Of a stretch of 64,000 nucleotides of DNA, positions 15,057 through 48,002 are shown piece after piece. The position numbers were made by a program, and so were the translations under genes. The stretch's first letter is position 1. Each line of letters begins with the position of its first letter. The stretch comes from Patescibacteria group bacterium (GTDB taxonomy: Bacteria; Patescibacteriota; Minisyncoccia; Phycocordibacterales; CSBR16-119). The stretch is taken from contig JBPOJJ010000003.1 of NCBI GenBank assembly GCA_052033715.1, forward strand, positions 52,383 through 116,382. Reading direction: 5' to 3'. The notes below the pieces were generated by a model. The model ran no database searches, was not told where the DNA came from, and worked only from the letters and a program-made list of their open reading frames with translations.

Positions 15057-15064
15057 CGAGTGAT

Positions 15065-15108: not shown

Positions 15109-15118
15109 CTGTAGTTGC

Positions 15119-15422: not shown

Positions 15423-15446
15423 ACCTTCTATTTCCGGAAAGGTGTG

Positions 15447-15596: not shown

Positions 15597-15673
15597 TTGG
15601 TAAGAGTTCGGCAACACTATAGCTTTTTATTCTAGATTGGTCAAAATGTGGAAAACCAAGTAAGATAAAAATC

Positions 15674-16873: not shown

Positions 16874-16888
16874 TGATAAAATATCTTC

Positions 16889-18450: not shown

Positions 18451-18457
18451 AAATGAG

Positions 18458-18482
18458 AAGACCCGCTGTGCAGCGGGCCTTT
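18458..18482. terminator. bidirectional terminator (tag / 18504-18842 gene)
   Basis: gacccgctg-tgc-cagcgggc hairpin between convergent genes. Confidence 0.5.
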
Positions 18483-18503
18483 CATGTTTCGTGGAGCTGT
18501 TCC

Positions 18504-18842: not shown

Positions 18843-18961
18843 GGCAGGGTGTTTTATGAGCTCTCGCTCGAGTTCGTTTAAAGATTACACCGAAGTCTGG
18901 AAATGTCAAACCGCCTTTGCAAAAGATCAAAAATTGTATAGAATATTGCCTGTTACTATTT

Positions 18962-19034
18962 GGGCCCTTAGCTTAGTTGGTAGAGCGCCGCTTTTGCAAA
19001 GCGGAGGTCAGGAGTTCGAATCTCCTAGGGTCCA
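18962..19034 (+). tRNA. tRNA-Ala (anticodon UGC), no encoded CCA
   Basis: GGGCCCT acceptor with G3:U70 Ala identity pair, anticodon loop TTTGCAA, T-loop GGAGTTCGAATCTCC, discriminator A. Confidence 0.9.
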
Positions 19035-19045
19035 CGCGTTGAAAA

Positions 19046-19078
19046 AAGAGCCCACTTTTTGAGTGGGCCTTTTTTCTT
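19046..19078 (+). terminator. rho-independent terminator after tRNA-Ala
   Basis: gcccact-ttttg-agtgggc followed by cttttttc. Confidence 0.6.
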
Positions 19079-19154
19079 GCGTGGACCCGTAAAGTAGGCA
19101 AACTGCTTTGCCTGCGGGGAGATTCGAAAGCCGCAACGATGTCGCTTGCGACAA

Positions 19155-19242
19155 GTGAGGCGGGGTCGCGAGTACTTTTGAGCGTAGCGAATTAGTAACT
19201 CGTGACCGAACCCTAGGGTCCACAAAAGACACAAAGTCCCAA
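19155..19242. repeat. repeat unit 1 (ggggtcgcg...agtaactcgtgaccgaaccctagggtccac...), contains 12 bp identical to the tRNA-Ala 3' end
   Basis: Direct comparison with 19327-19431; palindrome accctagggt; followed by a 13 bp-stem hairpin. Confidence 0.6.
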
Positions 19243-19326
19243 CTGCTTGGGATTTTGTGCTTTTGTGGAAGGCGCAGCGTTGTTTTTGTTTGAGTCCGCC
19301 CGAGGTGGACGAAAGGCAAAAACCGC

Positions 19327-19431
19327 GAGCCGGGGTCGCGCAAAATTACCGTCAGGTAATTTATGTGTGACCACAAAAACTCAGTAACTCGTGACCGAAC
19401 CCCGGGGTCCATCCAAGACACAAAACCCAGA
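19327..19431. repeat. repeat unit 2 (ggggtcgcg...agtaactcgtgaccgaaccccggggtcca...)
   Basis: ~85% identity to unit 1 over the 48 bp core; palindrome changed ccctaggg to ccccgggg (symmetry preserved). Confidence 0.6.
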
Positions 19432-19462
19432 TTTATTTATAGTATAATAAACAGACTGAAAC

Positions 19463-22462
19463 ATGACTTTTCCAATCAAAAAAGTATTTGTTTTTGCTAT
19501 CCTATTTTTCTTTGTGGGTTTTTTGGACGTACAAGCGGCTACGATTACCGTTACTGACTCTACTGAAGCAGACACCGATAACGGACTATGTTCTATAGTC
19601 GAAGCGATTGCGAACGCAAATACTGATAGTCAGTCCGGCTCCGTTGATTGTGCTTCTGGATCTGGAACAGACACGATTAGTTTAGACACAGACGTCGTCT
19701 TGGACGCAGCCTTCAACAATGGCGGGGACATGAGCACTGCTACTCCAAATATAACCGGCTCTCTAACAGTTGACGGTGAAGGCAACACGATTACGCTCAC
19801 TGGAGATTTCAGGGCTTTTTATTCTGCGGCGGCCATTGATCTTGCGATAGTAGATATAGTCATATCCGGTGATGATACGGCTAATGCTGCGGCCGGAGGG
19901 GTCATGTATATTGATGGCGTTAACTCTCTTTCATTAAATGATGCAATAATTGATTCCCATTTGGCTGGCAATGGCGGAGTGATTTATGCCGAAGTTGATT
20001 CAAGTTCGACAGTCTCTATCGAAGATTCGAGTTTTATTGGAAATGAGGGGGGTGATGGTGGAGTTTTGTATGTAAACGATACTGTTAACTTAGCAAACAT
20101 ATCTATTGATAATTCTTATTTTTCTTTAAGTCTCGCTGGTTCTGGCGGAGTCTTCTATTTTAATGACGTTTTTAACGTAGACATAACGAGTTCAGTATTT
20201 TATGCCAACGAGAGCTTTTTAAAGGGAGGAGTCATAGATTTAAATGGAAATTTTGCCTCAGAGTTAAATATCACGAACAATTTTTTTGTCGCTAATATGG
20301 GTGGTGGTGGAGTTGGTGATGGCGGTGTCTTGTTTATGACTGGAGGAGATTATTCTATAAACGCAGCACACAATACTTTTCTGGGTAACGGACAAAGCGC
20401 TACCATTAAGGTCAGCGGGACTAATTCGGCGCCATCATTCTTTGAGAATAATATTTTTACCGAGGCCGGAGACTGTGAGGGGGATTTTACAAATTTTACT
20501 TTTACAAACAATCTCGCAGAAGACTCTGATTGTGGCAGTACAACTGAGGTTACAAACATGGACACAAGTCTCGCTGACAACGGTGGGTTATGGGACAGCA
20601 TAGCTTTGCAGGCGGGTAGTAATGCCATCGATGCTGGTGTTGCGGGAACTCTAGGCTGTCCGACAACTGACGCGAGAAGCGTGACTAGGCCCGTGGGAGC
20701 CGCTTGTGACATTGGAGCTTTTGAATTAGGTGTAGACGCCATCACCGTGACTCAGTCTGGCGGTAGTACGGCGGTTACTGAAGATGGTGCGACGGACACA
20801 TTTACACTCTATCTTGAGAACTTTCCGTCCGCTAGCGTTACTATAAATCTTACCGACGACAATCAGACAAATGTCTCACCGACCTCGGTTACATTCTTGC
20901 AGGCTGATTGGCCAGAGACGAAAACTGTAACTGTCTCAGCCGTTGATGATAGTGAGAACGAAGACGATACACACACAGGCTCCATTTCTTTTTCTGTGAC
21001 CTCAGGTGACGCCGGTTATAACAATTATTCTCTTTCTAATATTTCTGTTTCTGTGGCAGACAATGATTCTTCTGGGAGCAGCGGTAGTAGTGGGCCAGTT
21101 AATCCGCCACCGCCCCCACCACCAACTCCAATTCCGGGATGTACGAATCCTATCGCCCTCAATTACAACAGTGGTGCGAATACTGACAATGGATCATGTA
21201 CGTATCCTCCAGTGACGGTTCTCGGGTGTACTGATTCTTCAGCTACTAATTACAATCCATTGGCTAATCAAAACAATGGCTCGTGTACGTTTCCGCCAAC
21301 AGTAATTCTCGGATGTACCGATTCGTCCGCGACAAACTATGATTCTAGCGCAAATACTGACAATGGATCATGCATGTATCCTGTTTTGGAATTGGAAGAA
21401 GAGGTAATTCCTGTTGTCGAAGAGAGCATTCCGGTTGTTAGCGATGGCACAAAACCGGAACTTCCGGTCGCTGTAAAACATGTTTTTAATGGTTTGGTGC
21501 TCGGATTACCAGAAGTGCTTCAGGAGATCCCAAAAAACTTAGTCGACGCGATTTCTGTTGCCGGACTTGCCTTGCCTACTCTACTCGTTCTTACTACACA
21601 ACCAGCCACAGTTGCTTCTATCCCGCTTCGTTTGTGGAATCTTATCCCAACACTCTTAGGCTTCCGTCGGAAGAAGCGTCCGTGGGGAACAGTTTATGAT
21701 TCTGTTACCAAACAGCCGCTCGATCCGGTTTACGTCAAGCTTACTGATATGCGGGGTCGGGAAGTCGCTACGACCATTACTGATATTGATGGACGTTTCG
21801 GCTTCTTGGTTGCTCCGGGCACATATCGTTTGAGTGCCAACAAAGACAATTATGTTTTTCCATCACAAAGACTTGCCGGGAAAGATCATGACGAGCTTTA
21901 TGACAATCTGTATTTTCAAGAAGAGGTAACCATCAGCAACCAAGACGATCTTTTAATTAGAAACATTCCGATGGATTCGCAGAGTTTCAATTGGAATGAA
22001 TTTGAAAAAGCCAAGAACAAAAATCTGATGAAGTTTTATTCCAGAAGAGATTTATTCTTGGCGAAAACGGCAAGCGTTCTATTTATTCTCGGTATTGTTT
22101 CGTCTCTCGTCCTCATGTTTATGACACCCGTGCCGATCAATTTTATTATCCTCTGCTTCTACGGAGTTGTTTTGATTCTGCGAGCCTTTGGAGTGCGACC
22201 GAAAAAACCGGGGTATGTTATTGAAAAAGAAACGGGTTTTCCACTTTCTTTTGGTATTATTAAAATATTCAGTGCAGAGATTGGTCGGGAAGTCGCTCAT
22301 GTCGTTATCGGTAAAACCGGTAAGTACTACACCCTGGTTCCAAATGGGGAATATTACATGCAGATTATGAAAAAGACTGGCGAAGATACTTACGAGAAAG
22401 TTTTTCAGGGCGAGGATTTTGCTGTTAGAGGAGGATATATTGGAAAAGTTTTTAAGGTATAG
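19463..22462 (+). CDS. large surface protein with four parts: CSLREA-like N-terminal motif plus parallel beta-helix repeats; three Cys-framed ~30-aa repeats; a polyproline linker; C-terminal TM helices with two carboxypeptidase-regulatory-like domains
   Basis: Signal peptide; GLCSIVEAIANAN; Gly/Asn-rich beta-helix repeats; CDIGAFE motif; PPPPPPPTPIP; hydrophobic helices near the C-terminus. Confidence 0.85.
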   Translation: MTFPIKKVFVFAILFFFVGFLDVQAATITVTDSTEADTDNGLCSIVEAIANANTDSQSGSVDCASGSGTDTISLDTDVVLDAAFNNGGDMSTATPNITGSLTVDGEGNTITLTGDFRAFYSAAAIDLAIVDIVISGDDTANAAAGGVMYIDGVNSLSLNDAIIDSHLAGNGGVIYAEVDSSSTVSIEDSSFIGNEGGDGGVLYVNDTVNLANISIDNSYFSLSLAGSGGVFYFNDVFNVDITSSVFYANESFLKGGVIDLNGNFASELNITNNFFVANMGGGGVGDGGVLFMTGGDYSINAAHNTFLGNGQSATIKVSGTNSAPSFFENNIFTEAGDCEGDFTNFTFTNNLAEDSDCGSTTEVTNMDTSLADNGGLWDSIALQAGSNAIDAGVAGTLGCPTTDARSVTRPVGAACDIGAFELGVDAITVTQSGGSTAVTEDGATDTFTLYLENFPSASVTINLTDDNQTNVSPTSVTFLQADWPETKTVTVSAVDDSENEDDTHTGSISFSVTSGDAGYNNYSLSNISVSVADNDSSGSSGSSGPVNPPPPPPPTPIPGCTNPIALNYNSGANTDNGSCTYPPVTVLGCTDSSATNYNPLANQNNGSCTFPPTVILGCTDSSATNYDSSANTDNGSCMYPVLELEEEVIPVVEESIPVVSDGTKPELPVAVKHVFNGLVLGLPEVLQEIPKNLVDAISVAGLALPTLLVLTTQPATVASIPLRLWNLIPTLLGFRRKKRPWGTVYDSVTKQPLDPVYVKLTDMRGREVATTITDIDGRFGFLVAPGTYRLSANKDNYVFPSQRLAGKDHDELYDNLYFQEEVTISNQDDLLIRNIPMDSQSFNWNEFEKAKNKNLMKFYSRRDLFLAKTASVLFILGIVSSLVLMFMTPVPINFIILCFYGVVLILRAFGVRPKKPGYVIEKETGFPLSFGIIKIFSAEIGREVAHVVIGKTGKYYTLVPNGEYYMQIMKKTGEDTYEKVFQGEDFAVRGGYIGKVFKV

Positions 22463-22503
22463 AATCCCTGCACTGATTTGACAAATCATTAAAACTATGT
22501 AAT

Positions 22504-23970
22504 ATGGAGATACTTATGAAAATAAAATTCTTGATTTTTGTCGCACTATTCTTTTTAGTTTCGGCTAGAGCTTCGGCTGCCACGATAAATACAGGTCCAG
22601 ATTGTCCGCTTTTGGACGCTGTTATTTCGGCTCAGACAAATACCTCTTCATCGGGATGCGTTGCTGGTTTTGGGGCGGACACAATCAATATTACCCAAGA
22701 TGAAACAATTTCTTCCGAATACGATTCTTCTGGCAATTCTTTTCCTGTTATAACTGAACCTCTTACGATAAATGGAAACGGTTACACTATAATTCACGAA
22801 AATCCCGGCTTCAATCTCGTGCGCCTTTTTCAGGTTGTTGGCACAGATTTCACTTTGGATAACATTAAATTCGAACACACATACGGCTTTACTGCAGACG
22901 ACGGTGGCATGATTCACGCCACGGATTCCGTCGTTACTCTTAAGAGATCAGATTTTTCTTCCTTTAACGCGGGAGCCAAGGGCGGTGTTATTTATATACA
23001 AAATGGAAATCTTGTCATCCAAAAGAGCAATTTCAGCGGGAATTGGGCCTATGACGGTGGAGCCATATATATAGATAATGGAAACTTAAACATTCAATCA
23101 GGTAATTTTAGTGGCAATAGTTGTTGGAACGAAGGATGTGCTGTTATGACCGAGGGTCAGGTTAGCACAACTATTTCATCTTCTGTTTTTTTTCAAAACA
23201 TTGGAGCTCGGGCTGCCGCCATAAGTGCGGGCGCTAATTCAAATGGAAAATCTCTCACCGTGATAGATTCGGAATTTATAGAAAATAGTGTGATTAATGG
23301 AAATGATAGTGGTGCTGTGATTTGGAAAGGAGAAAATGGAACCGTAAAGATAACCAGGACAACCTTTTTTGGTAATCAGGGGTCAGGTTTTGGTGCAGGG
23401 TTCTACAACGAAGGAAGCTCGTCGAATGTTATTGTGATCAATTCAACGTTCTCGGATAACCACACCAATGGTCCGGGCTCGGCGATATTAAATGTTGCCG
23501 AAGGCGTCAGATTGGATGTCGCGTACAATACCTTCATCAACAATGACTCTTTCACAATTGAAGGAGCGCTTTCGATCACTGGTCCGCAGCTAGTTGATTC
23601 TGTTGTAGAAAACAATATTTTTACTAACAACGACGGCGATTGTAATTTTGCTTCTCATTTGGGAGTTAATTTTGTTAACAATCTTTCTGATGACGGAAGC
23701 TGTAGTTCTGTTGTCGCGACAAACATATCTTCAGTCCTCGCCCATAATGGCGGCCCCACTAGGACGCACGCGCTTTTGGCGGGAAGTAACGCTGTCGACA
23801 CAGCGGTGACTGATATGTTGTTGGTCCGAAACCCTTGTCCAAAAGGAGATCAAAGAATATATCCTCGAATGATCGATGGAAATAATGACGGAATTTTGAA
23901 ATGTGATATCGGAGCATACGAAAGACAAAAGAAAATCGCTCAAACTGTCCTAAAGCCATTTAGGCCGTAA
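22504..23970 (+). CDS. secreted CSLREA / beta-helix repeat protein (paralogous architecture; likely starts at MKIKF, 22516)
   Basis: Signal peptide; DCPLLDAVISA; NGN/GGA beta-helix repeats; C-terminal CDIGAYE motif; TTGACA-16-TAATAT promoter abutting the start. Confidence 0.85.
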   Translation: MEILMKIKFLIFVALFFLVSARASAATINTGPDCPLLDAVISAQTNTSSSGCVAGFGADTINITQDETISSEYDSSGNSFPVITEPLTINGNGYTIIHENPGFNLVRLFQVVGTDFTLDNIKFEHTYGFTADDGGMIHATDSVVTLKRSDFSSFNAGAKGGVIYIQNGNLVIQKSNFSGNWAYDGGAIYIDNGNLNIQSGNFSGNSCWNEGCAVMTEGQVSTTISSSVFFQNIGARAAAISAGANSNGKSLTVIDSEFIENSVINGNDSGAVIWKGENGTVKITRTTFFGNQGSGFGAGFYNEGSSSNVIVINSTFSDNHTNGPGSAILNVAEGVRLDVAYNTFINNDSFTIEGALSITGPQLVDSVVENNIFTNNDGDCNFASHLGVNFVNNLSDDGSCSSVVATNISSVLAHNGGPTRTHALLAGSNAVDTAVTDMLLVRNPCPKGDQRIYPRMIDGNNDGILKCDIGAYERQKKIAQTVLKPFRP

Positions 23971-24072
23971 AAACTCCAAACCCAGCTTTCAAATTGTTTC
24001 AATTTTTGTACGGGCCCAGTAAAATTCTTCTTCCACACTCTAAAAACAGCCTAGTCTGTTAAAATTAGATCA

Positions 24073-25983
24073 ATGAAACATTTTTTGGTTTTTCTTTTTG
24101 TTATTTTTTGTGCTGGGATTGTTGGGCATTTTGTTTTTGCCGATCAGGTTGAAAGGGTAAGTGTGACTACTTCTGGTACCCAAGGAAATGGGACCTCTTT
24201 TGGAGCACAAATGTCTTCGGATAATGAATATATTGTCTTCACTTCTTCCGCTTCTAACTTGGTAGATGGAGACACGAACGGCGTGGCCGATGTGTTCGTC
24301 TATAGTAGAGATACGGGCGTAATCGAGAGAGTCAGCCTTGATAGTTTGGGTACTCAAGGAAATGGTGCTCCAATTTATGAACCAGCTATTTCTGCCGACG
24401 GACGGTATGTCGCTTTTGATTCCGAAGCAATAAATTTTGATTTAAGTGACACGAATGGTTTATCAGATATCTTTGTCTATGACCGTCAAACCGACACCAT
24501 TGAACGGGTGAGTGTTGACGATGTGGGCACGGAAGCAGATGGTGCGTCGTACATTGTCTCAATGTCTTCTGATGGAAGGTATGTCGCATTCAATTCCGAC
24601 GCAACCAATCTTGTGGCGGGAGACACGAACGGTGTCGCCGATGTTTTTGTCTATGACCGTCAAACCGACACCATTGAACGGGTGAGTGTTGACGATGTGG
24701 GCACGGAAGCAGACCTTGGTACTATAAATTACCTTGATATTTCCGATGACGGACAATATGTCACTTTTGATTCCGACGCAACCAATCTTGTGGCGGGAGA
24801 CACGAACGGTGTCGCCGATGTTTTTGTCTATGACCGTCAAGCCGACACCATTGAACGGGTGAGTGTTGACGATGTGGGCACGGAAGCAGATGGTGGTTCG
24901 TTGTTTCCATCTTTGTCGGGAGATGGTCGGTATGTGGCTTTTCTTTCCTTGGCAACGAATCTTGTTTCTGGAGATACAAATGGCACATTTGATATTTTCG
25001 TTTATGACCGTCAAACCGACACTATTGAACGGGTGAGTGTAAACAGCCAGGGTCAGCAAGCAAACAATGCATCTTCTTATTATTCTTCAATTTCTTTTGA
25101 TGGACGATATGTCATTTTCAATTCTATAGCCACAAATCTTGTGGCAAATGATACCAACGGCAAGGCAGATATCTTTGTTCGTGATCGAACACTTGGTACC
25201 ACTGAACGTATAAGTGTTGGAGAAAATGGTGTCGAAGCAAATGACCACTCCTTCTTTCGTGCAAATGTTTCCACTGACGGTCGGTATGTTTTGTTTCCTT
25301 CACTCGCATCAAATCTTGTTTCCGGAGACACGAACGCCGCAATAGACGTATTTGTTTACGATAGAGAGTATGAAGAAGTCGAGGCGGCTGTTGTTTCAGG
25401 TGGGGTAAATAGTTCTGGATTTTTGCAGCCTCACATAAGTCTAGAAAATTATGCAACACAGACGTCGAGTCAGACGGTCAATTTAGTTGCGCATATTCCT
25501 GTAACAACTACTTTTTATGAGATTTCCAATACGTCTGATTTCGCTAATCGACAGATTTTCATCCGGGACGGTTTGGAAAAAATTCTACAGTGGGATATTT
25601 GTAATAATTTAAAAACTTGCGAACCCGGACAAAAAAAGATTTACGCGCGTTTTTATAATCAAGAGAGGATGATTTCGGAACAGATTTTGGAAATAAATTA
25701 CTTGCAGACGAGAGAGTGTCCGTATTTCAAGCAATACTTACGAATGGGCTCCAACAAGAATAACCCAGATGAGGTTATAAAGATGCAAGCATTTTTGAAT
25801 GCATATATGGGAGAGAATCTTTCCGTCGACGGCTATTTTGGCCGATCTACCGACAGGGCCGTTAGAAGATTTCAAGAGAAATATCCAGACCAAATAATCC
25901 GTCCATGGCCGACACTCGACCGCTCGACCGGTTGGTGGTACATCACCACTTCCGGCTACGCTAACGTTTTGGTTGGGTGCTAG
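24073..25983 (+). CDS. secreted PD40/TolB-like beta-propeller repeat protein with C-terminal peptidoglycan-binding-like domain
   Basis: Signal peptide; >7 repeats of (DTNGVADVFVYDRQTDTIERVSVD...SDGRYVAF); C-terminal GYFGRSTDRAVRRFQ motif. Confidence 0.85.
   Translation: MKHFLVFLFVIFCAGIVGHFVFADQVERVSVTTSGTQGNGTSFGAQMSSDNEYIVFTSSASNLVDGDTNGVADVFVYSRDTGVIERVSLDSLGTQGNGAPIYEPAISADGRYVAFDSEAINFDLSDTNGLSDIFVYDRQTDTIERVSVDDVGTEADGASYIVSMSSDGRYVAFNSDATNLVAGDTNGVADVFVYDRQTDTIERVSVDDVGTEADLGTINYLDISDDGQYVTFDSDATNLVAGDTNGVADVFVYDRQADTIERVSVDDVGTEADGGSLFPSLSGDGRYVAFLSLATNLVSGDTNGTFDIFVYDRQTDTIERVSVNSQGQQANNASSYYSSISFDGRYVIFNSIATNLVANDTNGKADIFVRDRTLGTTERISVGENGVEANDHSFFRANVSTDGRYVLFPSLASNLVSGDTNAAIDVFVYDREYEEVEAAVVSGGVNSSGFLQPHISLENYATQTSSQTVNLVAHIPVTTTFYEISNTSDFANRQIFIRDGLEKILQWDICNNLKTCEPGQKKIYARFYNQERMISEQILEINYLQTRECPYFKQYLRMGSNKNNPDEVIKMQAFLNAYMGENLSVDGYFGRSTDRAVRRFQEKYPDQIIRPWPTLDRSTGWWYITTSGYANVLVGC
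24476..24900 (+). repeat. near-identical ~174-180 bp in-frame tandem repeats inside the PD40 gene (3 copies)
   Basis: gtctatgaccgtcaaaccgacaccattgaacgggtgagtgttgacgatgtgggcacggaagcaga recurs at ~24476, ~24650, ~24830 with 1-2 mismatches. Confidence 0.8.
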
Positions 25984-26064
25984 ATATCAAAAGGTTTACA
26001 AAAAACAAGTTTTTGTTTATAGTCTTTCGTGAACCAGGAACAAACCATATAAACCCGCAAGGTC

Positions 26065-26421
26065 ATGCACACCGCAGCAATGAAAATTCCAGTGTCTGTG
26101 CCTTTAGCCAGACCCGAGGAGGTCGAGTCCCCAACTGACCCGATGTCTCAAAGGACAAAAAGGCAAAGGCAGATCTACGACAACGGCTCCTACCAATTCA
26201 GGCACCTTATCCTTGTTGTCCTCAAAACCAACAAGAGAGGCAGGGCTGGATACGACACCACAACCCACTTTGTGCTCAGGGATTACCCAGATCTGAGGTG
26301 GGAAGAAGAGAAGGAGTTCGTGCGTGAGCTGCTCAAGAAGCACCATCCTGGACTCTATAAGCGTCTGGAGACCAATAAGTGGATATGGGTGAAGCCTGAA
26401 CCAAAGAAGAAACTCGCTTAA
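26065..26421 (+). CDS. hypothetical protein (GC-rich orphan; start uncertain)
   Basis: ~52% GC; strong terminator immediately downstream; no recognisable domain. Confidence 0.4.
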   Translation: MHTAAMKIPVSVPLARPEEVESPTDPMSQRTKRQRQIYDNGSYQFRHLILVVLKTNKRGRAGYDTTTHFVLRDYPDLRWEEEKEFVRELLKKHHPGLYKRLETNKWIWVKPEPKKKLA

Positions 26422-26437
26422 CCGTGTCCTTTCGTCG

Positions 26438-26481
26438 TAAAGCGCCCCCTGACCTCACCAGTCGGGGGCGCTTATCGTTTT
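26438..26481 (+). terminator. rho-independent terminator
   Basis: aagcgccccc...gggggcgctt long stem followed by atcgtttt. Confidence 0.6.
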
Positions 26482-26521
26482 AAATAAGGTTTTTTAAAAT
26501 TTATCTCGATAAAAAGTCGTT

Positions 26522-26603
26522 TTGACAGCCAAATCAAAAAAAGTAGAATTAACGAAAATGTTGGGGTAGATTGCTTGACAAATGAAATGTCTTGCCGTAT
26601 AAT
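26522..26603 (+). promoter_or_regulatory. two tandem sigma70-like promoters (TTGACA-16-TAGAAT and TTGACA-17-TATAAT) with ~150 nt leader
   Basis: Exact consensus hexamers at 26575-26580 / 26598-26603; weaker pair at 26522-26527 / 26544-26549. Confidence 0.5.
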
Positions 26604-26761
26604 CCCGCCATAAAGATTCGAACGTCTTTTTCGCTCGAATTTGTAAAAAAGATTGTTTGATGAGATGGGAGGCTTGAAACCTTTCGAATAATCTTGTCTG
26701 GCAACCAATGTAGTTCAATTCGTTTATTAATTTTGCGTTTATTACTAAAAAATATTTTATT

Positions 26762-29416
26762 ATGAAGAATTTTAAGATTAAAAATCTATCGAAAAGAGCG
26801 CTTCTCGGCGTCTTTGTTTTTCAGTTTGCAGTAACAACCTCTTTCGCCCCGATAATCGCGCGAGCTCAGGTGGTAACCGAAGAGATGGCCGTTGATACGG
26901 TGGAAACTGTGGCTGAACCTGTAGAAATCAGTACCTCTGAAGAAGTTGTCGTAGAAGAAACAACTACAGACGTACCTGAAGGCGAAACAACAACTCCTTC
27001 CGGTGAGGAAACCACCGAACCAGAGGCAAAGACCGAAGAAAAGTCATTTTCTGTTGTTGGTGGCGGCGGACACGATCCCGTTGATATCTGCCACGCAGCC
27101 GGCCAGAGCGGTAATTACATTTTTCTTACAGTCGACGACGATGGTGCATACGGAGGACATGGCGGTCATGAAAATGACATCTTGCCAATTACTGATGTCA
27201 ATGGTGACAGGGAAATCAATCAAGCCGATTGTGATTATCAGGCTCCGGAAGAAGAATCTTGCGATGCTTCAATAAACCTATTTGATAACTCGGGATTTGA
27301 AAATCCGGTTCTTCCTGGATCTTGGAACATCTATGCTGATGGAACATCTGGTTTGGCTTGGGATGTCGAGTGGCAAGCTGGCTCTGGCGACAACACTCCT
27401 GCCAAAGCCGAATTGCAACAGATCTACACTGCTCACTCTGGCGAACAATATTTAGAACTAGATTCTGATTTTGATGGACCAGGGGGATCAATTTCAAACG
27501 AAGAAGCTTCTACTCGAATCTCCCAAACTATTACGACTGTTCCTGGACAAGAATACGAAATCTCATACTTCTATTCTGCTCGACCTGGATATGGATACGA
27601 TGACAACAAGGTTGGTCTATATATTGATGGGTTCCCTTGGGATCTTTCTGTAACGACTAATGGCGTTGGTGACTCAGATACTTTTTGGGCACAGAAATTC
27701 AATCATTTTACAGCTGATAGCACTTCTCACACGATAACTTTTGCTGATCTTGGAACAGCTAATTCTTTTGGAATGTTTCTAGATGATATGCGTGTAAATT
27801 GTGTCGAAGAAGATGGCGGTGGTGACGACGACAAGAATACTCCTCCAGACATTGATGTCGTTCCAGAAATTATCGAAGTTTTCATCGGTTCAGTTTGTGA
27901 CGAAGCGCTTATAATGGGTGGCGTTACGGCTGATGACCTTGAAGACGGTAATCTAACAAATGAAATCGAATATGCTGGAACTGTCAATTGTAATGTTCTG
28001 GGCGACTATCCAGTGACTTACAATGTCGAAGATTCCGAAGGGCTCCCAGCCGAAGAGGAAACTCGTATTATTCGCGTTGTAAATAATGACGACGAAGAAG
28101 AAAATCCTTCTTGTGATTCACAGGCAATTTGGGCTCGAGTCGTCGTTACTTCATACTCAAATGTCGGTGCGGGTGATATGACCAACACTATCTACCTCGG
28201 TTCTTCGATCAACACTGTCACTACAGGAGAATGGTTCCCGGTTTCTCCGGCAGATGTTCAGAATATAGAAAACTTCGCGGACGTATCAGGACTCGCTGTT
28301 AAAAGACGAGTAGACAACAAGATCGTTCTTGAACTTCACGGAAGTCATCTTCCAAAAGGAACTGGTAAGGAATACGCCGATGGGTATATTGAATTCTTTA
28401 ATGCTGTACCAAGCGTTCTTGTGGGTGCAACTGGTCAGAATAAACTAGAACTCAATGGAGATAATGAAATTGGCCACCAGGATATTGTTTGGATTGATGG
28501 AGATAAGGCAAATTTCAATCTCGGAGTCGGGACAGCCGATGATCGATTCTCTACAACCTATACATATTCTCTAGACGAAGAGTGCGATGACGATGGCGGT
28601 GGAGACAATAACAATCCTCCGGCTATCGTTTTGGCTGACGAGTGTATCCTTTGGTCAGAAGAATCTTTCAATTTCACATCTGGCGTTACAACATCAGATG
28701 CTGACGGAGATACAGTTAACCTTACTTACGTAGTTAGCCCTGATCCAATAGTTTTTGGTCAAGATGGAACTTATACAATCACTTATACTGCTGATGACGG
28801 AGAAGACACCACGGTCGTCTCAAAGACTCTAACCATTGATGAAGATTGTGAAGAGGACAATGGGGGTGGCGGAGGTGATGACGAAGAGGACAATGGCGGC
28901 GGAGGCGGTGGAGGTAGTTCAGGAAGTATTCTTGGCGGCGGAGGTTCAAACAGACAAGGTGAAGTCTTGGGTGCCACAACTGCGGCTTGTGCACAATTCA
29001 CTCAGTATCACGATACTGGAAGTACTCAGAGCGAAGTCAGAGCTCTCCAGACATTCCTAAACGAATACATGGATGCGGGACTTACAGTGAACGGAACTTA
29101 CGACTGGGCAACGACTCAGGCAATACATGACTTCCAGGCTTTGCACTGGGATGCCATCATCAAACCATGGCTTGGTTCACCAAGTAAAATCAGTCCGAAC
29201 ACAACTGGCCGAACCCGACAGACGACAACTCAGGCTTTGAACTTCATCATCAACTGTCCAAATGATGCCATGTATCTAGAAGATCCTCAGATTTTCTACA
29301 AACTTACTGAAATCAAAAACAAAAAAGAATTTTCCGCGGATCAAATTATGAAGATAACGAATATCTTGGATGAAGTTCACGGAATAGTTCTCGGAGCTGA
29401 GGCAATGGAAAAATAA
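26762..29416 (+). CDS. large secreted protein with five parts: acidic Thr/Glu-rich linker; Cys/His N-module plus jelly-roll-like domain; two Ig-like (DUF5011-like) domains; Gly-rich linker; C-terminal peptidoglycan-binding-like domain
   Basis: Signal peptide; VDICHAAG...H..H motif; LFDNSGFENPV...FLDDMRVNCVEE; TADDLEDGNLT; GGGGG runs; ALQTFLNEY...DGTYDWATTQAIHDFQ. Confidence 0.85.
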   Translation: MKNFKIKNLSKRALLGVFVFQFAVTTSFAPIIARAQVVTEEMAVDTVETVAEPVEISTSEEVVVEETTTDVPEGETTTPSGEETTEPEAKTEEKSFSVVGGGGHDPVDICHAAGQSGNYIFLTVDDDGAYGGHGGHENDILPITDVNGDREINQADCDYQAPEEESCDASINLFDNSGFENPVLPGSWNIYADGTSGLAWDVEWQAGSGDNTPAKAELQQIYTAHSGEQYLELDSDFDGPGGSISNEEASTRISQTITTVPGQEYEISYFYSARPGYGYDDNKVGLYIDGFPWDLSVTTNGVGDSDTFWAQKFNHFTADSTSHTITFADLGTANSFGMFLDDMRVNCVEEDGGGDDDKNTPPDIDVVPEIIEVFIGSVCDEALIMGGVTADDLEDGNLTNEIEYAGTVNCNVLGDYPVTYNVEDSEGLPAEEETRIIRVVNNDDEEENPSCDSQAIWARVVVTSYSNVGAGDMTNTIYLGSSINTVTTGEWFPVSPADVQNIENFADVSGLAVKRRVDNKIVLELHGSHLPKGTGKEYADGYIEFFNAVPSVLVGATGQNKLELNGDNEIGHQDIVWIDGDKANFNLGVGTADDRFSTTYTYSLDEECDDDGGGDNNNPPAIVLADECILWSEESFNFTSGVTTSDADGDTVNLTYVVSPDPIVFGQDGTYTITYTADDGEDTTVVSKTLTIDEDCEEDNGGGGGDDEEDNGGGGGGGSSGSILGGGGSNRQGEVLGATTAACAQFTQYHDTGSTQSEVRALQTFLNEYMDAGLTVNGTYDWATTQAIHDFQALHWDAIIKPWLGSPSKISPNTTGRTRQTTTQALNFIINCPNDAMYLEDPQIFYKLTEIKNKKEFSADQIMKITNILDEVHGIVLGAEAMEK

Positions 29417-29430
29417 TAAATTAAAAGAAA

Positions 29431-29470
29431 GAGAAAATCCCCCGCGTCTGACGTGGGGGATTTTCTCTTG
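29431..29470 (+). terminator. strong rho-independent terminator
   Basis: gagaaaatcccccgcg-tctga-cgtgggggattttctc. Confidence 0.65.
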
Positions 29471-29486
29471 CTCCTATCATAAACAC

Positions 29487-29495
29487 TGGTATAAT
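29487..29495 (+). promoter_or_regulatory. extended -10 element TGGTATAAT
   Basis: TGnTATAAT match ~20 nt upstream of the 29516 start. Confidence 0.4.
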
Positions 29496-29515
29496 TTAAC
29501 CAAGTCAAATATTTC

Positions 29516-30019
29516 ATGCAAACTCAAAGCTTCCATCGAAGTAAATACAATATCTGTTGGATCTCCGTACTGGTGATCTTTGTCGGTACGATTATTTATC
29601 CGATTAGTTTTGAGCGCGCAGATAAAAAAAGCCATACTCCTGTCGTCCAGTCTGTCACGCCGACTTTTTCGTTTCCGACAGTAGAAGTTACTCCAATAAG
29701 AAATTATCCAACCACTGTCAAAACTGAAACCATAAAACCGGTAACTTCATCCAAACTAATTTTTACTCGCGATCTGAAAATAGGGGACAAGGGCCCAGAC
29801 GTGAAAAAACTTCAGCAATATTTGAATCAGCGCGGATTTATCGTAGCAACCTCTGGTAATGGTTCTCCGGGACAAGAAAGTGAATTATTCGGTCCAGGAA
29901 CACAAAACGCACTCAAGCGTTTTCAGGAAAGTTATGCAGAGATACTTCTCAAGCCCTACGGATTATCAGAAGGGACGGGATTTTTCGGGGAAGTTACGCG
30001 AAAATTCGTTAATTCATAA
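29516..30019 (+). CDS. membrane-anchored protein with peptidoglycan-binding-like domain
   Basis: N-terminal TM; GDKGPDVKKLQQYLNQRGF...FGPGTQNALKRFQ. Confidence 0.7.
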   Translation: MQTQSFHRSKYNICWISVLVIFVGTIIYPISFERADKKSHTPVVQSVTPTFSFPTVEVTPIRNYPTTVKTETIKPVTSSKLIFTRDLKIGDKGPDVKKLQQYLNQRGFIVATSGNGSPGQESELFGPGTQNALKRFQESYAEILLKPYGLSEGTGFFGEVTRKFVNS

Positions 30020-30029
30020 AGATTATTTC

Positions 30030-31253
30030 ATGAAGGATTTTCTAAAAATTTTAGTTGTTATGTCGATAATCTGCCCGACATTTCTGTTGGCGCAGACACC
30101 CACTGTTCCAGACGCTCCTTTGAATTTACTGGGTCGTTCGGCAGCTAAAGAAATTTACGTTCAGTGGGATGTTCCATTAAGTGACGGCGGTTCAGCCATA
30201 GACGGATATAACTTAAATTACAGAGAAGGGAATAGCGGTGTCTGGATGTCGTCGTTTACAACACTGACAAACTATACACTATCGAGTTTGACACAGAACA
30301 CAGAGTATCAGATTTTTGTCACGGCGGTTAATATCGTAGGAGAAAGTCGGCCGTCGGAAACCATAAACATACAGCTTGGCCCGTTTGATGAAGAAGATAC
30401 GGTGTCCCCGGTTGTAGTTGGAGAGATTGTCGTATCAAATATTTCCAACGATGGAGCGACAATTACTTGGACCACAGACGAACCGACCACCTCGGCAATT
30501 TATTATGATGTTCATCGCGAAGATCAACATGGTCTTGTTATCGGTGCAACATTAACGACCGAACATCAGATTGATTTGTCGGGGCTGATTTCTTGCTCAG
30601 AGTATTTCTTTGTTGTTGGAGGAGAAGATGCGAGCGAAAATTTTTACACGAGTAGCGTAGAAGAATTTGAAACATCTGGTTGTGTTGGGCAAGTTACATC
30701 CCAGGATGTTGGAGATCTTGTTCCGCCAGATAGTGTGAATACGTTTTCTTTTGAAAATGCCAAAGTTGAAATCGTTGCTGGTCCTGGAATAGTCGATCGA
30801 GATGCTGTATTTCAAGTAAAAAGATTGAGTGTCTCTTCTGTTGACGGAGAAGTGGGTTGTCCAGTCGATGCAAAACCACTGGGAGAGAATATTTATGACA
30901 TAAAACTCTTAGATAATTATGATTCTGTGGCGAGTATTCGAGAACCCGTCACCGTAACGATAGATTATGGCGATGAGGACATAGATAATATAAAAGAAGA
31001 AAGCTTGTCACTCTATCATTATGCCGAAGGTGTGGGTTGGCAAAAACTAAATTCTTGCTCGGTAAACAAAGAAGAGAAAAAAATAACTTGTGAGGTTCAG
31101 AATTTCTCAAAATTTATGGTTGCCGTAGAAGAAAATTGTGATTCAGAACAAAATAACTGGTTTTTTTCTAAATTTGATTCGTTTTTTTCCAAAATAGACC
31201 ATAAAATAAAGACTTTTTTCTGGGGAAAGATAATGGGCATGAAGGTATTTTAG
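30030..31253 (+). CDS. secreted fibronectin-type-III repeat protein
   Basis: Signal peptide MKDFLKILVVMSIICPTFLLAQT; FN3-like segments (PDAPLNL...YQIFVTAVN; ATITWTTDEPTTSAIYY); start reassigned from overlapping ORF. Confidence 0.75.
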   Translation: MKDFLKILVVMSIICPTFLLAQTPTVPDAPLNLLGRSAAKEIYVQWDVPLSDGGSAIDGYNLNYREGNSGVWMSSFTTLTNYTLSSLTQNTEYQIFVTAVNIVGESRPSETINIQLGPFDEEDTVSPVVVGEIVVSNISNDGATITWTTDEPTTSAIYYDVHREDQHGLVIGATLTTEHQIDLSGLISCSEYFFVVGGEDASENFYTSSVEEFETSGCVGQVTSQDVGDLVPPDSVNTFSFENAKVEIVAGPGIVDRDAVFQVKRLSVSSVDGEVGCPVDAKPLGENIYDIKLLDNYDSVASIREPVTVTIDYGDEDIDNIKEESLSLYHYAEGVGWQKLNSCSVNKEEKKITCEVQNFSKFMVAVEENCDSEQNNWFFSKFDSFFSKIDHKIKTFFWGKIMGMKVF

Positions 31254-31287
31254 TCCTTGATTTTTAAATCTTTCATGTTATAATATA

Positions 31288-32352
31288 GTGGTGAAAAAAA
31301 CCTTAAAGAAATATTTTATCCCACACGCGGAGAATGAACACAAACCGCATATTTTGCGCGAACGCGCCGTTTTGTCGATAGCACTTGTCGTCGTCGTGCT
31401 CTTTGCGGCCTCAGTCCTCGGTACTTATGCGGTAAAAAATATAAAATTTTTGGCCGCCATCCAATCAGCTTTTCTTGTCGATCTGGCCAATGAAGACCGT
31501 GCCGATCTTGGCCTCAAACAACTTGCCATAAACGATAAACTTGTAAATGCCGCTACCCTCAAAGCCGCCGACATGGCCGAAAAAAGTTATTTTGCACACA
31601 TCAGTCCAGAAGGTAGAACGCCTTGGTACTGGATTCAGCAAGCTGGCTACACATACATTTATGCCGGCGAAAATTTGGCTGTGAATTTCGATGACTCGGA
31701 AGATGTCGAGCGCGCTTGGATGAATTCACCTACTCACAAGGCGAACATTTTAAATAATAGATACACCGAAATCGGCATCTCGACCGCCGTTGGAACCTAT
31801 AAGGGCAAAAAGACAACTTTTGTCGTCCAGATGTTTGGTACCCCGAGGAAATCAGTGATCAGTAATATTGAAACAAGCTTATCTCCGAGGGTTGCCGAGG
31901 CCTCAGAGACTAGACCCGCAATAAACCCTGAAAGCAACACCGCTTCTATAGTGGTCGTAAAGGTTCCGGAAGAAGAACCTGTTCCAGAAGCTATTGTCAC
32001 GGCCCAGGAAGCTACTTCTGTAGAGGAAGGAAATTTTATGTCTTTCACCAATCCAGAAGTATCTCCCGAAGAACTTGCTCAAGTCGAAGAAGTGGATAGT
32101 ACCGATCAAAAAGTAACTTATACTAATTGGTTCGAGCGCGTCCTTGTGTCGCCTTCGGTTGTAGTTAAAAATATCTATTTCGTTCTTGTCGCCCTCATAA
32201 TTTTCTCTCTGATATTGAAAATATTTATCGAGATTCGTCTTCAACATCCAAGGAATATTGCTTATGGAGTAATACTACTTGCCATAATACTAATTTTTAT
32301 GTATTTAAATTCTAGCGTGGGACCCGCTACCACCATTGTCGTCGCATCTTAG
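31288..32352 (+). CDS. CAP/SCP (YkwD-like) domain protein with N- and C-terminal TM helices (GTG start)
   Basis: YFAHISPEG...AWMNSPTHKANILNNRYTEIGIS CAP signature. Confidence 0.75.
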   Translation: MVKKTLKKYFIPHAENEHKPHILRERAVLSIALVVVVLFAASVLGTYAVKNIKFLAAIQSAFLVDLANEDRADLGLKQLAINDKLVNAATLKAADMAEKSYFAHISPEGRTPWYWIQQAGYTYIYAGENLAVNFDDSEDVERAWMNSPTHKANILNNRYTEIGISTAVGTYKGKKTTFVVQMFGTPRKSVISNIETSLSPRVAEASETRPAINPESNTASIVVVKVPEEEPVPEAIVTAQEATSVEEGNFMSFTNPEVSPEELAQVEEVDSTDQKVTYTNWFERVLVSPSVVVKNIYFVLVALIIFSLILKIFIEIRLQHPRNIAYGVILLAIILIFMYLNSSVGPATTIVVAS

Positions 32353-32479
32353 GATAATTGAAATAAGGCCTTGTTTTTTGCGTCATAAGGGGTAGACTAG
32401 TAATGATTTTATTGGTCTTTTTAAGGGCCAATTTTAAGGGGTTTTACTAAGTAGATTATCATTAAAAAATAAGAACATT

Positions 32480-33886
32480 ATGAAAAATATTTTATCAAAA
32501 GGTTTTGGGGTATTGGTTATGTTTGCGATGACTTTCAACGTCGCCTTGGCCACACCCTCTTCGCAAATTACTATTTGTCATTTTCCACCAGGAAATCCTA
32601 ATAATCCGCAGACGATAACCATAAGCGCTAATTCCTGGAACGCGCATCAGTCGCACGGTGATTATCAGGGAGAATGCGAGGGGGAAGAAAATATTCCGGT
32701 TTGTGATATCGAAGAAAATTTGATTTACAACGGTGGTTTCGAGTCTCCGGTCGTAACGGCTGGTCAGGGCTGGGATGTTTATCCAAACGGCACTGCTGGA
32801 CTTGGATGGAGTGTCGCTTGGAACGGGGTTTTTGCTGGTGCACCGGCCGTAGCAAATCTTGAACTTCATCGGGGGGTGAATGCTTGGGTGCATGATGAGG
32901 GTATGCAGCATGCAGAACTTGATACTGACTGGGTTGCCGGAGGTTCAGAACAAGCATCAGTTGTAATTTCTCAAGACATCGCAACGATACCCGGAGCAAC
33001 ATATGAATTGTCTTATGCATTCTCTCCACGACCAGGAACCGGAGCCGCAGAAAATGTTTTAGAAGTTTTGGTTGATGGATCACTCGTCCAAACCCAAGGT
33101 CCTGTTGCTGGAGGAGGAAATACATCTTGGACAACACATACTTACAATTTTGTTGCAGATGGTTCGACAACAACGATTGCTCTACGAGATGCCGGAACAC
33201 CGAATACACTTGGAACTTTCCTTGACGACGTTTCTGTTCGATGTGTCGAAGAACCAGAAGAATGCGAATTGTTGTATGCTCGCATTAGAACTGCTGAACG
33301 TGGGTGGTGGAACAATTGGGGGACTGGAAATTTGGGCGCCTGGAATACAAAGGGTGTAGCCAATCCTCCGGTTTATGTTGGAGGAAATAATCTTCTACAC
33401 AATTCTCTTGGCGGAGACGGTTACACATCACAAGAATGGTTCCCGCTCGTCGATGAAGAAACTTGTGAAGCAATTGTTGATGAAGAATTCAACTTTGACC
33501 TTCCTGGTCTTGCCGTTCAAAGACTTGACGGATCACTTCGAGTTGTCCTTTACGGATCACATGACGCTGGTGAAGATCCAGCACGTCTTCTGAATCGAGA
33601 GTTCGCAAGAGGATACATTGAACTTTCAAAAGACATGGTTACGAAATTGACGGGGGCATGGGACAAGTCAAACGGTTGGGTTGATCCAGTGGATACCTAC
33701 ACTCGTATTCATGATCCTCTTGTAAATGATGCTGCTAATCCAATGGATGCACGCGGTTCATTTAATGGCTCTATTCACATACACCATCCACTCTATGATA
33801 ATGTAAAGGTTTTGGGCGATTTGTTTAGATTCCATCTCGTTGTTACTACTGGAAATGATGGATTCTACGCAAAATACAATAACTAA
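32480..33886 (+). CDS. secreted protein paralogous to the N-terminal half of the 26762 gene product (Cys/His module plus jelly-roll-like domain)
   Basis: Signal peptide; ITICHFPPGNPNNP...H..HGD; LIYNGGFESPV...FLDDVSVRCVEE. Confidence 0.8.
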   Translation: MKNILSKGFGVLVMFAMTFNVALATPSSQITICHFPPGNPNNPQTITISANSWNAHQSHGDYQGECEGEENIPVCDIEENLIYNGGFESPVVTAGQGWDVYPNGTAGLGWSVAWNGVFAGAPAVANLELHRGVNAWVHDEGMQHAELDTDWVAGGSEQASVVISQDIATIPGATYELSYAFSPRPGTGAAENVLEVLVDGSLVQTQGPVAGGGNTSWTTHTYNFVADGSTTTIALRDAGTPNTLGTFLDDVSVRCVEEPEECELLYARIRTAERGWWNNWGTGNLGAWNTKGVANPPVYVGGNNLLHNSLGGDGYTSQEWFPLVDEETCEAIVDEEFNFDLPGLAVQRLDGSLRVVLYGSHDAGEDPARLLNREFARGYIELSKDMVTKLTGAWDKSNGWVDPVDTYTRIHDPLVNDAANPMDARGSFNGSIHIHHPLYDNVKVLGDLFRFHLVVTTGNDGFYAKYNN

Positions 33887-33904
33887 TACCTAAAGTTATG
33901 CTAA

Positions 33905-33935
33905 AAACTCCGGCCCTGGTCGGGGTTTTTAGTTT
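33905..33935 (+). terminator. candidate terminator
   Basis: ctccggccctggtcgggg imperfect hairpin followed by ttttt. Confidence 0.4.
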
Positions 33936-47996: not shown

Positions 47997-48002
47997 AGTA
48001 AC

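Follow-up and report, generated by a model that had tools for sequence, protein, structure and literature searches.

The nine open reading frames (ORFs) that lie between the tRNA-Ala gene and leuS in a 64,000-nucleotide stretch of a Patescibacteria group bacterium genome (GenBank assembly GCA_052033715.1, contig JBPOJJ010000003.1; hereafter the window) probably form a lineage-specific cell-surface display locus of Patescibacteria of the Paceibacteria/Parcubacteria type, whose proteins would carry their passenger domains on the cell's own wall. We place the probability of this reading at about 0.6. The block is 14 kb long, with all ORFs (g1–g9) on the + strand, and runs from the start of g1 (19463) to the stop codon of g9 (33886). 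A preliminary interpretation made from the letters of the DNA (the sequence-only reading) had listed eight genes encoding only secreted or membrane-anchored proteins. The block contains nine ORFs, as g4 is a real gene and g6 a separate one; an N-terminal hydrophobic signal or anchor is present in eight of the nine proteins, and g4, which has no signal peptide, is the exception.

In the arrangement that we propose, these eight proteins would be exported by the Sec pathway and each would consist, in general plan, of a binding passenger joined to a retention module. The candidate passengers are RbtA-like β-helices (g1 and g2), a PD40 propeller (g3), jelly rolls resembling carbohydrate-binding modules (CBMs) together with Ig-like domains (g5 and g9), an FN3 domain (g7) and a CAP domain (g8). 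Retention would be provided by C-terminal PG_binding_1 domains (g3 and g5), by a transmembrane (TM) segment plus PG_binding_1 (g6), by a polytopic membrane module (g1) and by TM anchors (g8); g2, g7 and g9 have no anchor and may be released or held indirectly. Through the peptidoglycan (PG)-binding modules, the proteins would be attached non-covalently to the peptidoglycan of the cell that makes them, in the manner of other monoderm bacteria, with the passengers facing outwards to bind glycans or proteins on a partner cell or on a substrate. The locus itself would be chromosomal and vertically inherited, with turnover proceeding cassette by cassette and most strongly beside tRNA-Ala. We infer the surface localization, the own-wall binding and the adhesive role by analogy with related proteins.

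Wall-binding modules and retention

Domains, export signals, paralogy, synteny, insertions and deletions, and expression signals are direct observations. Domains were assigned by hidden Markov model (HMM) searches of Pfam and NCBIfam with curated cut-offs, and phage families with PHROGs. The three C-terminal PG_binding_1-type domains recognized in the sequence-only reading are borne out by Pfam, in which PF01471 (PG_binding_1) matches g3, g5 and g6 with 32.2, 24.3 and 38.3 bits, respectively, against a cut-off of 23. The three domains can be aligned with one another, and an HMM built from these tails locates domains of this type in g3, g5 and g6 only within the 64 kb. The smallest of the three proteins, g6 (29516–30019; 167 residues), combines an N-terminal TM anchor with PG_binding_1 and is conserved at 64–79% in four loci of related genomes (L161, L162, L165 and L169; see below) and at 48% in a fifth (L167).

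We favor retention on the cell's own wall for three reasons: the cell synthesizes peptidoglycan itself, with ddl and murJ on either side of the locus; the PG-binding end of the protein is the one that is conserved and escapes swapping; and PF01471 (PGB1) is recognized as one of the modules by which surface proteins of monoderms bind the wall non-covalently (PMC5817068). Anchors are kept as passengers are swapped: in L169, NHL repeats replace the propeller of g3 and the C-terminal 195 residues are still 57% identical to the g3 tail, and the C-terminal module of g1 is found behind cadherin-type and other unrelated N-termini in other Patescibacteria-type proteins.

The same modules were first taken as part of an episymbiont-to-host adhesion toolkit, in which PG_binding_1 grips the wall of a host and the other domains act as adhesins. 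The domain types are indeed typical of adhesins and the locus differs between close relatives; furthermore, all cultivated Patescibacteria are reported to be episymbionts (PMC11623550), and a host-attachment role has been proposed for Paceibacteria proteins containing PG-binding domains (PGBDs; PMC10936435). We nevertheless regard a host-wall grip as unlikely. The PG-binding module is C-terminal, at the end that is not swapped and in the usual place of wall-retention modules, in a cell that makes peptidoglycan of its own; and g6 is tethered to the cell's own membrane, so its PG_binding_1 domain is best placed to touch the cell's own wall. Methanogenic archaea are not known to contain peptidoglycan. 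The hosts in the published case are methanogenic archaea (PMC10936435), which weakens binding to host peptidoglycan as a general mechanism. Own-peptidoglycan retention is the more parsimonious proposal, with ddl and murJ beside the locus and g6 a membrane-anchored PG-binding protein.

The proposed plan has counterparts in both better-known and closely related systems. Surface proteins that monoderm bacteria anchor to the wall non-covalently (PGB1 = PF01471) share the Sec signal peptide, the variable passenger and the terminal wall-binding module; they differ in that PF01471 of well-studied bacteria is mostly joined to wall hydrolases, whereas here the module follows propellers, Ig-like domains or jelly rolls and is accompanied by no enzyme domain. 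Paceibacteria are also reported to have extracellular proteins of this sort, which are highly expressed and combine PGBD, Ig-like and galactose-binding folds (PMC10936435). They belong to Ca. Yanofskyibacterium/Minisyncoccaceae (Kuroda et al. 2024, PMC10936435), members of the same class of bacteria, and share the domain combination of g5, g3 and g6, a likeness that is drawn from their domain description; their proposed role is partner attachment. A clustered, tRNA-adjacent and cassette-variable locus is not described in that study. Attachment to a partner cell is, by this analogy, plausible for the proteins of the block as well.

Architecture of the exported proteins

g1 (19463–22462; 999 residues) comprises, in order, a signal peptide, an RbtA-like right-handed β-helix with choice-of-anchor Q, a β-sandwich, three 29-residue Cys repeats and a C-terminal polytopic membrane module with a CarboxypepD_reg match. 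g2 (22504–23970; 488 residues) contains a signal peptide, a β-helix and choice-of-anchor Q with no anchor module, and is paralogous to the N-terminal half of g1 (28% identity over ∼490 residues, E = 7e-26). The choice-of-anchor Q family of NCBIfam (NF041518) matches g1 with 65.4 bits and g2 with 51 bits against a cut-off of 25, and g2 additionally gives a Beta_helix match and a weak Pectate_lyase_5 match in Pfam. The structure model of g1, with a mean predicted local distance difference test score of 68, displays a long right-handed β-helix, a β-sandwich, three small Cys repeats and a C-terminal region in which two CarboxypepD_reg-like sandwiches are interspersed among four or five helices. 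Among solved structures, Foldseek gives Rhombotarget A (PDB 9CDV; E = 3.4e-7) as the closest match of the β-helix. The motif C43-S44-x-x-E47-A48 is invariant in the g1 family, and this motif and the C-terminal ∼330 residues are its most conserved parts.

Two segments of g1 may be described further. The three tandem 29-residue repeats (21119–21382) follow the pattern GCTDxxAxNYNxxAxxDNGSC, with two conserved Cys residues each, and have no Pfam match. The strongly conserved C-terminal part (residues ∼670–999; 21470–22459) includes the TM helices, an RRKKRPWG motif and the two CarboxypepD_reg-like β-sandwiches.

The sequence-only reading had classed g1 and g2 as CSLREA/parallel β-helix proteins. 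The β-helix assignment holds, from NF041518 in both proteins and Beta_helix in g2, and membership of CSLREA was rejected: TIGR04214 (CSLREA) has no match at E ≤ 10 in the first 130 residues of g1 or g2, and TIGR04212 (rhombotarget A) reaches 16.3 bits against a cut-off of 295. What remains of the relationship is the CSxxEA-like motif and the fold similarity to 9CDV. g1 and g2 share with Rhombotarget A (Acinetobacter RbtA) the right-handed β-helix fold and the N-terminal Cys-Ser-x-x-Glu-Ala motif, and with the wider group of Rhombotarget A, CSLREA and choice-of-anchor Q proteins an above-cut-off match to choice-of-anchor Q. They differ from Rhombotarget A in giving no TIGR04214 match and in carrying no GlyGly-CTERM or rhombosortase signal; a GlyGly-CTERM sorting signal was not found in either protein, as g1 ends in TM segments and CarboxypepD_reg modules of its polytopic membrane module and g2 has no hydrophobic tail.

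The β-helices also bear on whether the block might encode secreted polysaccharide-degrading or scavenging enzymes, in which the β-helices would provide lyase or hydrolase activity and the jelly rolls would serve them as carbohydrate-binding modules. The Beta_helix and weak Pectate_lyase_5 matches of g2 and the CBM-like fold of the jelly rolls point in this direction. Against it, no catalytic family reaches threshold in any of the proteins in Pfam or NCBIfam, the jelly rolls are not fused to a recognizable catalytic domain, PF20585 is an adhesive pectate-lyase-like domain and the choice-of-anchor families are surface-passenger domains. We consider an enzymatic role for the block very improbable.

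g3 (24073–25983; 636 residues) consists of a signal peptide, about seven 58-residue PD40-type blades, a β-sandwich and the C-terminal PG_binding_1 domain. PD40 (PF07676) reaches 40.4 bits (cut-off 20.9), and the approximately seven repeats recur in the DNA with a period of 174–177 nucleotides. The PD40, fn3 and CAP assignments of the sequence-only reading, for g3, g7 and g8, respectively, are all matched in Pfam. g7 (30030–31253; 407 residues) has a signal peptide, an fn3 domain (68 bits), a second FN3-like domain and a further C-terminal domain with no assignment. Its start at 30030 agrees with the source gene call; the ATG of the ORF list (29859) is too far upstream and overlaps g6. g8 (31288–32352; 354 residues) has an N-terminal TM segment, a CAP domain of the YkwD type (60.8 bits) and two C-terminal TM segments; its counterparts in L161 and L162 show 78–79% identity and that of L001 shows 55%.

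g5 (26762–29416; 884 residues) and g9 (32480–33886; 468 residues) are paralogues that align with 39% identity over 230 residues (E = 7e-35). g5 is very acidic and contains a signal peptide, a CBM-like jelly roll of the choice-of-anchor C type, a further domain that g9 also has, Ig-like domains (PF16403) and the C-terminal PG_binding_1 domain; PF16403, Bact_surface_Ig-like, is the former DUF5011. In g9, the signal peptide is followed by a small Cys/His motif domain, a CBM-like jelly roll (DUF642) and another β-domain, and there is no anchor module. The jelly-roll fold is CBM-like in both proteins. The family label is less distinct: with TIGR04362 (choice-of-anchor C), g5 reaches 47.4 bits and g9 59.2 bits, both below the cut-off of 120, and with PF04862 (DUF642), g9 reaches 30 bits (cut-off 27) and g5 has no match. 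An Ig-like protein and two paralogous jelly-roll proteins had been proposed as separate entities; the domains are present, but the Ig-like protein is itself the jelly-roll paralogue g5. Orthologues of g5 are 72–88% identical in L161, L162 and L165, and L169 and L167 have longer versions, with four Ig-like domains.

The Cys/His motif of g9 (residues 29–66; 32564–32677), ICHxPxGNPxNPxTIxxxxxxxxxHxxHGDxxGxC, precedes the jelly roll and is also present in g9 homologues. This domain has no family match, and a related stretch occurs in g5 at about 27060–27200.

Expression signals

The control region of g5 (26522–26761, + strand) contains tandem σ70-type promoters followed by the 5′ untranslated region (UTR). 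The first promoter (26522–26549) agrees with the consensus at 11 of 12 positions and the second (26575–26603) at 12 of 12, the latter being a perfect TTGACA-17-TATAAT site. There are two perfect consensus promoters in the 64 kb, compared with 0.02 expected; promoter-like sites as a class show no enrichment (31 found versus 32 expected). The other perfect site, TTGACA-N18-TATAAT at 44232–44261, lies upstream of a DNA polymerase III gamma/tau-like gene at 44512. The g5 promoter is kept in five relatives, and the promoter with its ∼160-nucleotide leader is ∼98% identical to L161, where the adjacent coding DNA is more diverged. A hairpin at the 5′-proximal end of the 5′ UTR retains its pairing through one compensatory change. 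The leader, which together with the perfect promoter spans 26575–26761, has no family match in Rfam and may be mRNA-stabilizing or regulatory.

Strong hairpins (−22 to −34 kcal mol−1) follow the tRNA region, g4, g5 and g9. The one after g5 (29426–29472, + strand) is an inverted repeat with 23-nucleotide arms (−33.0 kcal mol−1), and the one after g9 (33900–33935, + strand; −21.8 kcal mol−1) forms the right border of the block and precedes a promoter-like site of leuS. No strong hairpins were found between g1 and g2, g6 and g7, or g7 and g8. This placement indicates g1-g2(-g3), g3, g4, g5, g6-g7-g8 and g9 as likely transcription units, so the locus is likely to be split into about five or six. 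The tandem consensus promoters and strong terminators which the sequence-only reading had proposed to subdivide the block are therefore present, in the form of the 11/12 and 12/12 sites before g5 and the hairpins of −22 to −34 kcal mol−1.

These signals suggest that g5 is a major wall-associated protein. Its wall-binding module and strong expression signals make it a candidate S-layer-like protein, but it contains 12 Cys residues.

The small gene g4 (26065–26421; 118 residues) stands apart from its neighbors. It encodes a basic protein with its own promoter-like site and terminator, and has no family match in Pfam, NCBIfam or PHROGs. It is 74% identical in L161, and its substitutions relative to L161 are concentrated at the third codon position (13, 11 and 40 by codon position), by which we recognize it as a real gene, apparently under purifying selection. 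One true cluster of homologues was found among 1.84 billion representative proteins, and g4 is a lineage-restricted orphan. Its G+C content at third codon positions (GC3) of 0.62, compared with 0.33–0.43 in the neighboring genes, makes it the sole deviating gene of the block. It might be a regulator of g5.

Conservation and turnover among relatives

The closest relatives by LeuS, Ddl and g9 are metagenome-assembled genomes (MAGs) labeled Paceibacteria, Parcubacteria and Falkowbacteria, the nearest being labeled 'uncultured Candidatus Saccharibacteria'. A reduced genome is assumed from the placement in Patescibacteria. Close relatives were recovered only through protein searches with g9, ddl and g1; a LeuS scan of metagenomes from JGI returned no close relative (best 63%).

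L162 (Logan; LeuS 90%, MurJ 92% and TopA 94% identical) has g3, g5, g6, g7, g8, g9, leuS and murJ in the same order and no g1, g2 or g4. L161 (GCA_964606255.1; MurJ 92%) has g3, g4, g5, g6 and g7, an extra Kelch propeller plus DUF4907 gene, and then g8 and g9. L165 (GCA_964557535.1; Ddl 85%) has the order uvrBAC-ddl-tag-tRNA-Ala with the g3 orthologue 63 nucleotides further on and no g1-g2; DUF4907 lies at the end of this locus and the preceding 1.6 kb are unannotated. L164 and L169, which come from one sample (Ddl 90%), have tRNA-Ala, an extra 450-residue membrane-anchored protein, g1, g2, an NHL-repeat propeller, a 1202-residue g5-type protein, g6 and a Kelch protein. In L170 (Ddl 88%), tRNA-Ala is followed by a 455-residue gene and then directly by an NHL-type propeller gene that is truncated by the contig end. 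The more remote L167 and L001 (LeuS 81%, Ddl 69%) carry a surface-protein block of ∼15 kb between tag/tRNA-Ala and leuS with partly different genes.

Overall, g3–g9 are syntenic in L161, L162 and L165, in which core proteins are 85–94% identical (g4 is missing in L162), and g5, g6, g8 and g9 are syntenic in all close relatives. The components that vary are g1-g2, g4, Kelch-DUF4907 and the type of propeller (PD40 or NHL). The exchanges observed are of PD40 for NHL propellers, of FN3 with or without Kelch-DUF4907, and of the β-helix pair as present or absent. The last is the most sharply defined: g1-g2 form a presence/absence cassette of ∼4.6 kb adjoining tRNA-Ala with clean breakpoints, present in the window and L169 (where the orthologues of g1 and g2 are 74 and 79% identical) and absent from L165, L162 and L170, and comparison of L169 with L170 shows a clean 4.7 kb insertion that carries them.

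In more distant Patescibacteria with leuS-murJ linkage, homologues of the island genes are absent upstream of leuS except for a weak partial match in L125; housekeeping genes and an occasional large secreted protein are found there, with no conserved island. murJ follows leuS in ten loci, and this linkage reaches well beyond the lineage. From the synteny in close relatives and the absence in distant ones, the locus is concluded to be lineage-specific, inherited in place and cassette-variable.

Rates of divergence are uneven across the locus. Relative to L162 and L165, nonsynonymous divergence (dN) is 0.40–0.56 for g3 and g7, 0.13–0.23 for g5, g6, g8 and g9, and 0.05–0.16 for the flanking genes, so only g3 and g7 appear clearly fast-evolving at the sequence level; g7 is the most diverged orthologue (43–74% identity, dN 0.55–0.56). 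Synonymous divergence (dS) is saturated, at 1.2 to >4, and dN/dS is below 0.25 throughout. Positive selection was considered and can be claimed for no gene on these values.

This variability leads to a further interpretation, namely a flexible envelope island under phage pressure. Exposed wall proteins, including an S-layer-like g5, would be phage receptors, and cassette replacement would be a means of escape and not a response to a change of host. Consistent with this are the presence/absence of cassettes and the domain swaps among relatives whose core proteins are 85–94% identical, the fast divergence of g3 and g7, and the strong expression signals of g5. A precedent is the cell-wall-associated genomic island of Haloquadratum walsbyi (PMC4535781). 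The envelope islands of that organism are likewise chromosomal and dense in surface proteins, and their gene content differs between otherwise near-identical genomes; they differ from the present locus in organism and protein families, and here g5, g6, g8 and g9 are stable and the variation is between species-level relatives and not within one population. Against it, dN/dS is low overall and g5 is Cys-rich. We hold phage pressure as the explanation of the locus to be possible though not favored. It is compatible with an adhesive role and does not exclude one, and as the reason for the turnover phage-driven variation is equally live beside attachment.

The tRNA-Ala border

The gene for tRNA-Ala (TGC; 18962–19035, + strand; identified by ARAGORN and by Rfam with 72 bits) forms the left border of the block and is identical (100%) to tRNA-Ala of L165, L166 and L169. 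It is followed by a region of att-like repeats (19036–19424, + strand) containing copies of the tRNA 3′ end, a 42-nucleotide junction repeat and a displaced flank. The last 12 nucleotides of the tRNA gene (CCTAGGGTCCAC) recur exactly at 19212–19223, where 0.04 occurrences are expected by chance; this second copy is 188 nucleotides downstream of the tRNA, and a degenerate third copy lies at 19401–19412. The junction repeat occurs at 19194–19235 and 19383–19424, 189 nucleotides apart. After the second tRNA-end copy, AAAAGACACAAA and a hairpin are homologous to the sequence directly 3′ of tRNA-Ala in L167. This ancestral downstream flank with its terminator (hairpin −33.8 kcal mol−1) is now at 19224–19268, shifted by 188 nucleotides, from which it follows that ∼188 nucleotides were inserted at the tRNA end. 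The two ∼189-nucleotide units after the tRNA were also considered as copies of one element, a possibility that was rejected as their common part is the 42-nucleotide junction and the rest aligns at random level. The junction has no further occurrence in the window or in 168 loci, and the repeat region has no family match in Rfam.

The 3′ end of tRNA-Ala is a hotspot, with six arrangements among seven relatives when the window is counted (window 18962–19424; L162 1–960; L167 14369–14558; L169 1–1440; L170 3184–4700). The tRNA is inverted in two of them, L162 and L167, the former of which retains a 'TAGTCCAC' remnant before g3. In L169 and L170 an ORF of ∼450 residues begins right at the tRNA end. 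No integrase was found in any of the six arrangements.

These features raise the question of whether the whole 14 kb, or at least g1-g2, is a mobile genomic island integrated at tRNA-Ala. The block adjoins a tRNA gene whose 3′ end is exactly duplicated over 12 nucleotides, with the ancestral flank shifted by 188 nucleotides; the tRNA-proximal content is variable, as the inverted tRNAs and the 450-residue genes among the six arrangements illustrate; and g1-g2 are a clean indel. In its position beside a tRNA 3′ end, the duplication of that end and the variable adjoining content, the locus resembles tRNA-linked integrative islands. It differs from them in having no integrase, no distal att copy bounding g1-g2 or the block, and a native composition, and in that the duplication brackets only ∼188 nucleotides of non-coding DNA. 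No integrase, recombinase or phage gene was identified by Pfam, NCBIfam or PHROGs in the ORFs of the block or in the tested neighbors. Copies of the tRNA end are confined to <400 nucleotides from the tRNA, and none was found at the g2/g3 (∼24000) or g9/leuS (∼33900) borders; neither the junction nor the tRNA 3′ end has an exact match in viral contigs. A prophage origin was likewise rejected, as the PHROGs matches arise through shared domains alone, namely CAP, the PG_binding domain of endolysins and the FN3 domain of tail proteins.

Composition gives the same picture. The G+C content of the block is 0.40–0.45 compared with 0.40–0.47 in the flanks, with slightly lower GC3, and the profile of G+C and codon usage that the sequence-only reading had called for is native for g1-g2 and the rest, g4 alone deviating. 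The synteny of g3–g9 already contradicts the whole-block version. Taken in its entirety, the 14 kb is not a mobile island, and some form of tRNA-targeted mobile island, g1-g2 included, appears quite unlikely. The tRNA border is better read as a hotspot of recombination that still bears marks of earlier site-specific events than as the edge of an att-bounded island.

The proposal of an accessory surface module beside a tRNA with att-like repeats is accordingly upheld in part. The dense module of exported surface proteins is real, as is the exact duplication of the tRNA 3′ end; comparison across genomes at tRNA-Ala and leuS supports an accessory character for g1-g2 (absent in L165, L162 and L170), g4, Kelch-DUF4907 and the propeller type, and does not support it for the whole 14 kb, since g3–g9 are syntenic in close relatives, the G+C content is native, there is no integrase and no repeat is present at the distal border.

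Functional implications

Several points weigh against a display locus carried on the own wall. The functional assignments derive wholly from domain analogy, and binding to the own wall and to a partner's wall cannot be told apart from sequence. PG_binding_1 is itself described as a putative PG binder for which further characterization is called for (PMC5817068). The 12 Cys residues of g5 are atypical of S-layer-like major surface proteins, and the topology of the C-terminal module of g1 is ambiguous, as its β-sandwiches may be cytoplasmic by the positive-inside rule. On the evolutionary side, g5, g8 and g9 diverge no faster than uvrC, ddl and tag, saturation of dS makes the selection analysis weak, and the comparisons rest on contigs from MAGs and metagenomes, several of which break at the tRNA and one of which (L161) has apparent frameshifts.

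A more specific form of the surface-display reading would be a dedicated partner-recognition locus of an episymbiont. The anchors (PG_binding_1 tails and the g1-type module) would be fixed, the outward binding domains would be exchanged as cassettes, and the tRNA-Ala 3′ end would serve as a recurrent insertion point with no resident integrase. We offer this as a speculation that is rather doubtful at present; if it were true, the set of cassettes would determine which host cells can be attached.

How ultra-small Patescibacteria recognize and hold their partners is largely unknown outside type IV pili, and the locus supplies a short list of candidate surface proteins. Its natural swap variants (g1-g2 present or absent, PD40 or NHL, Kelch-DUF4907 present or absent) could be set against differences in host range or in sensitivity to phages. 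Gram-positive surface proteins and published Paceibacteria transcriptomes have already made this architecture familiar, including the binding domains with wall-binding tails, the clustering and the variability, and the locus adds an example and detail and no new principle.

Neighboring genes and other features of the window

Both flanks of the block are housekeeping, with uvrB, uvrA, uvrC, ddl and tag upstream, and leuS, murJ, topA, dprA and serS downstream. In L001, murJ is followed by an ORF of 2391 residues (13627–20802) with no Pfam match at the place where the window has topA.

The right-hand core neighbor leuS (33971–35794, + strand; TIGR00396, 772 bits) encodes a LeuS of 607 residues that lacks the CP1 editing domain, as was also noted for L001, L162, L163 and L081; the more distant Patescibacteria among the loci have a LeuS of ∼800 residues. 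The protein aligns end to end with the 637-residue leucyl-tRNA synthetase (LeuRS) of PDB 3ZIU. Against LeuRS structures of 877–880 residues the alignment breaks at residue ∼227, with two matched stretches in some and the N-terminal stretch alone reported in others. The segment before KMSK is short, as in the LeuRS of Mycoplasma mobile. Among the papers searched, none links CP1 loss to Patescibacteria.

Further downstream, a fatty-acid desaturase gene (PF00487; 46443–47996) lies in a G+C-rich patch (46191–48500; 0.49–0.54 compared with ∼0.43 elsewhere) that adjoins tRNA-Gln, and may have been gained horizontally by a lineage that is usually without lipid synthesis.

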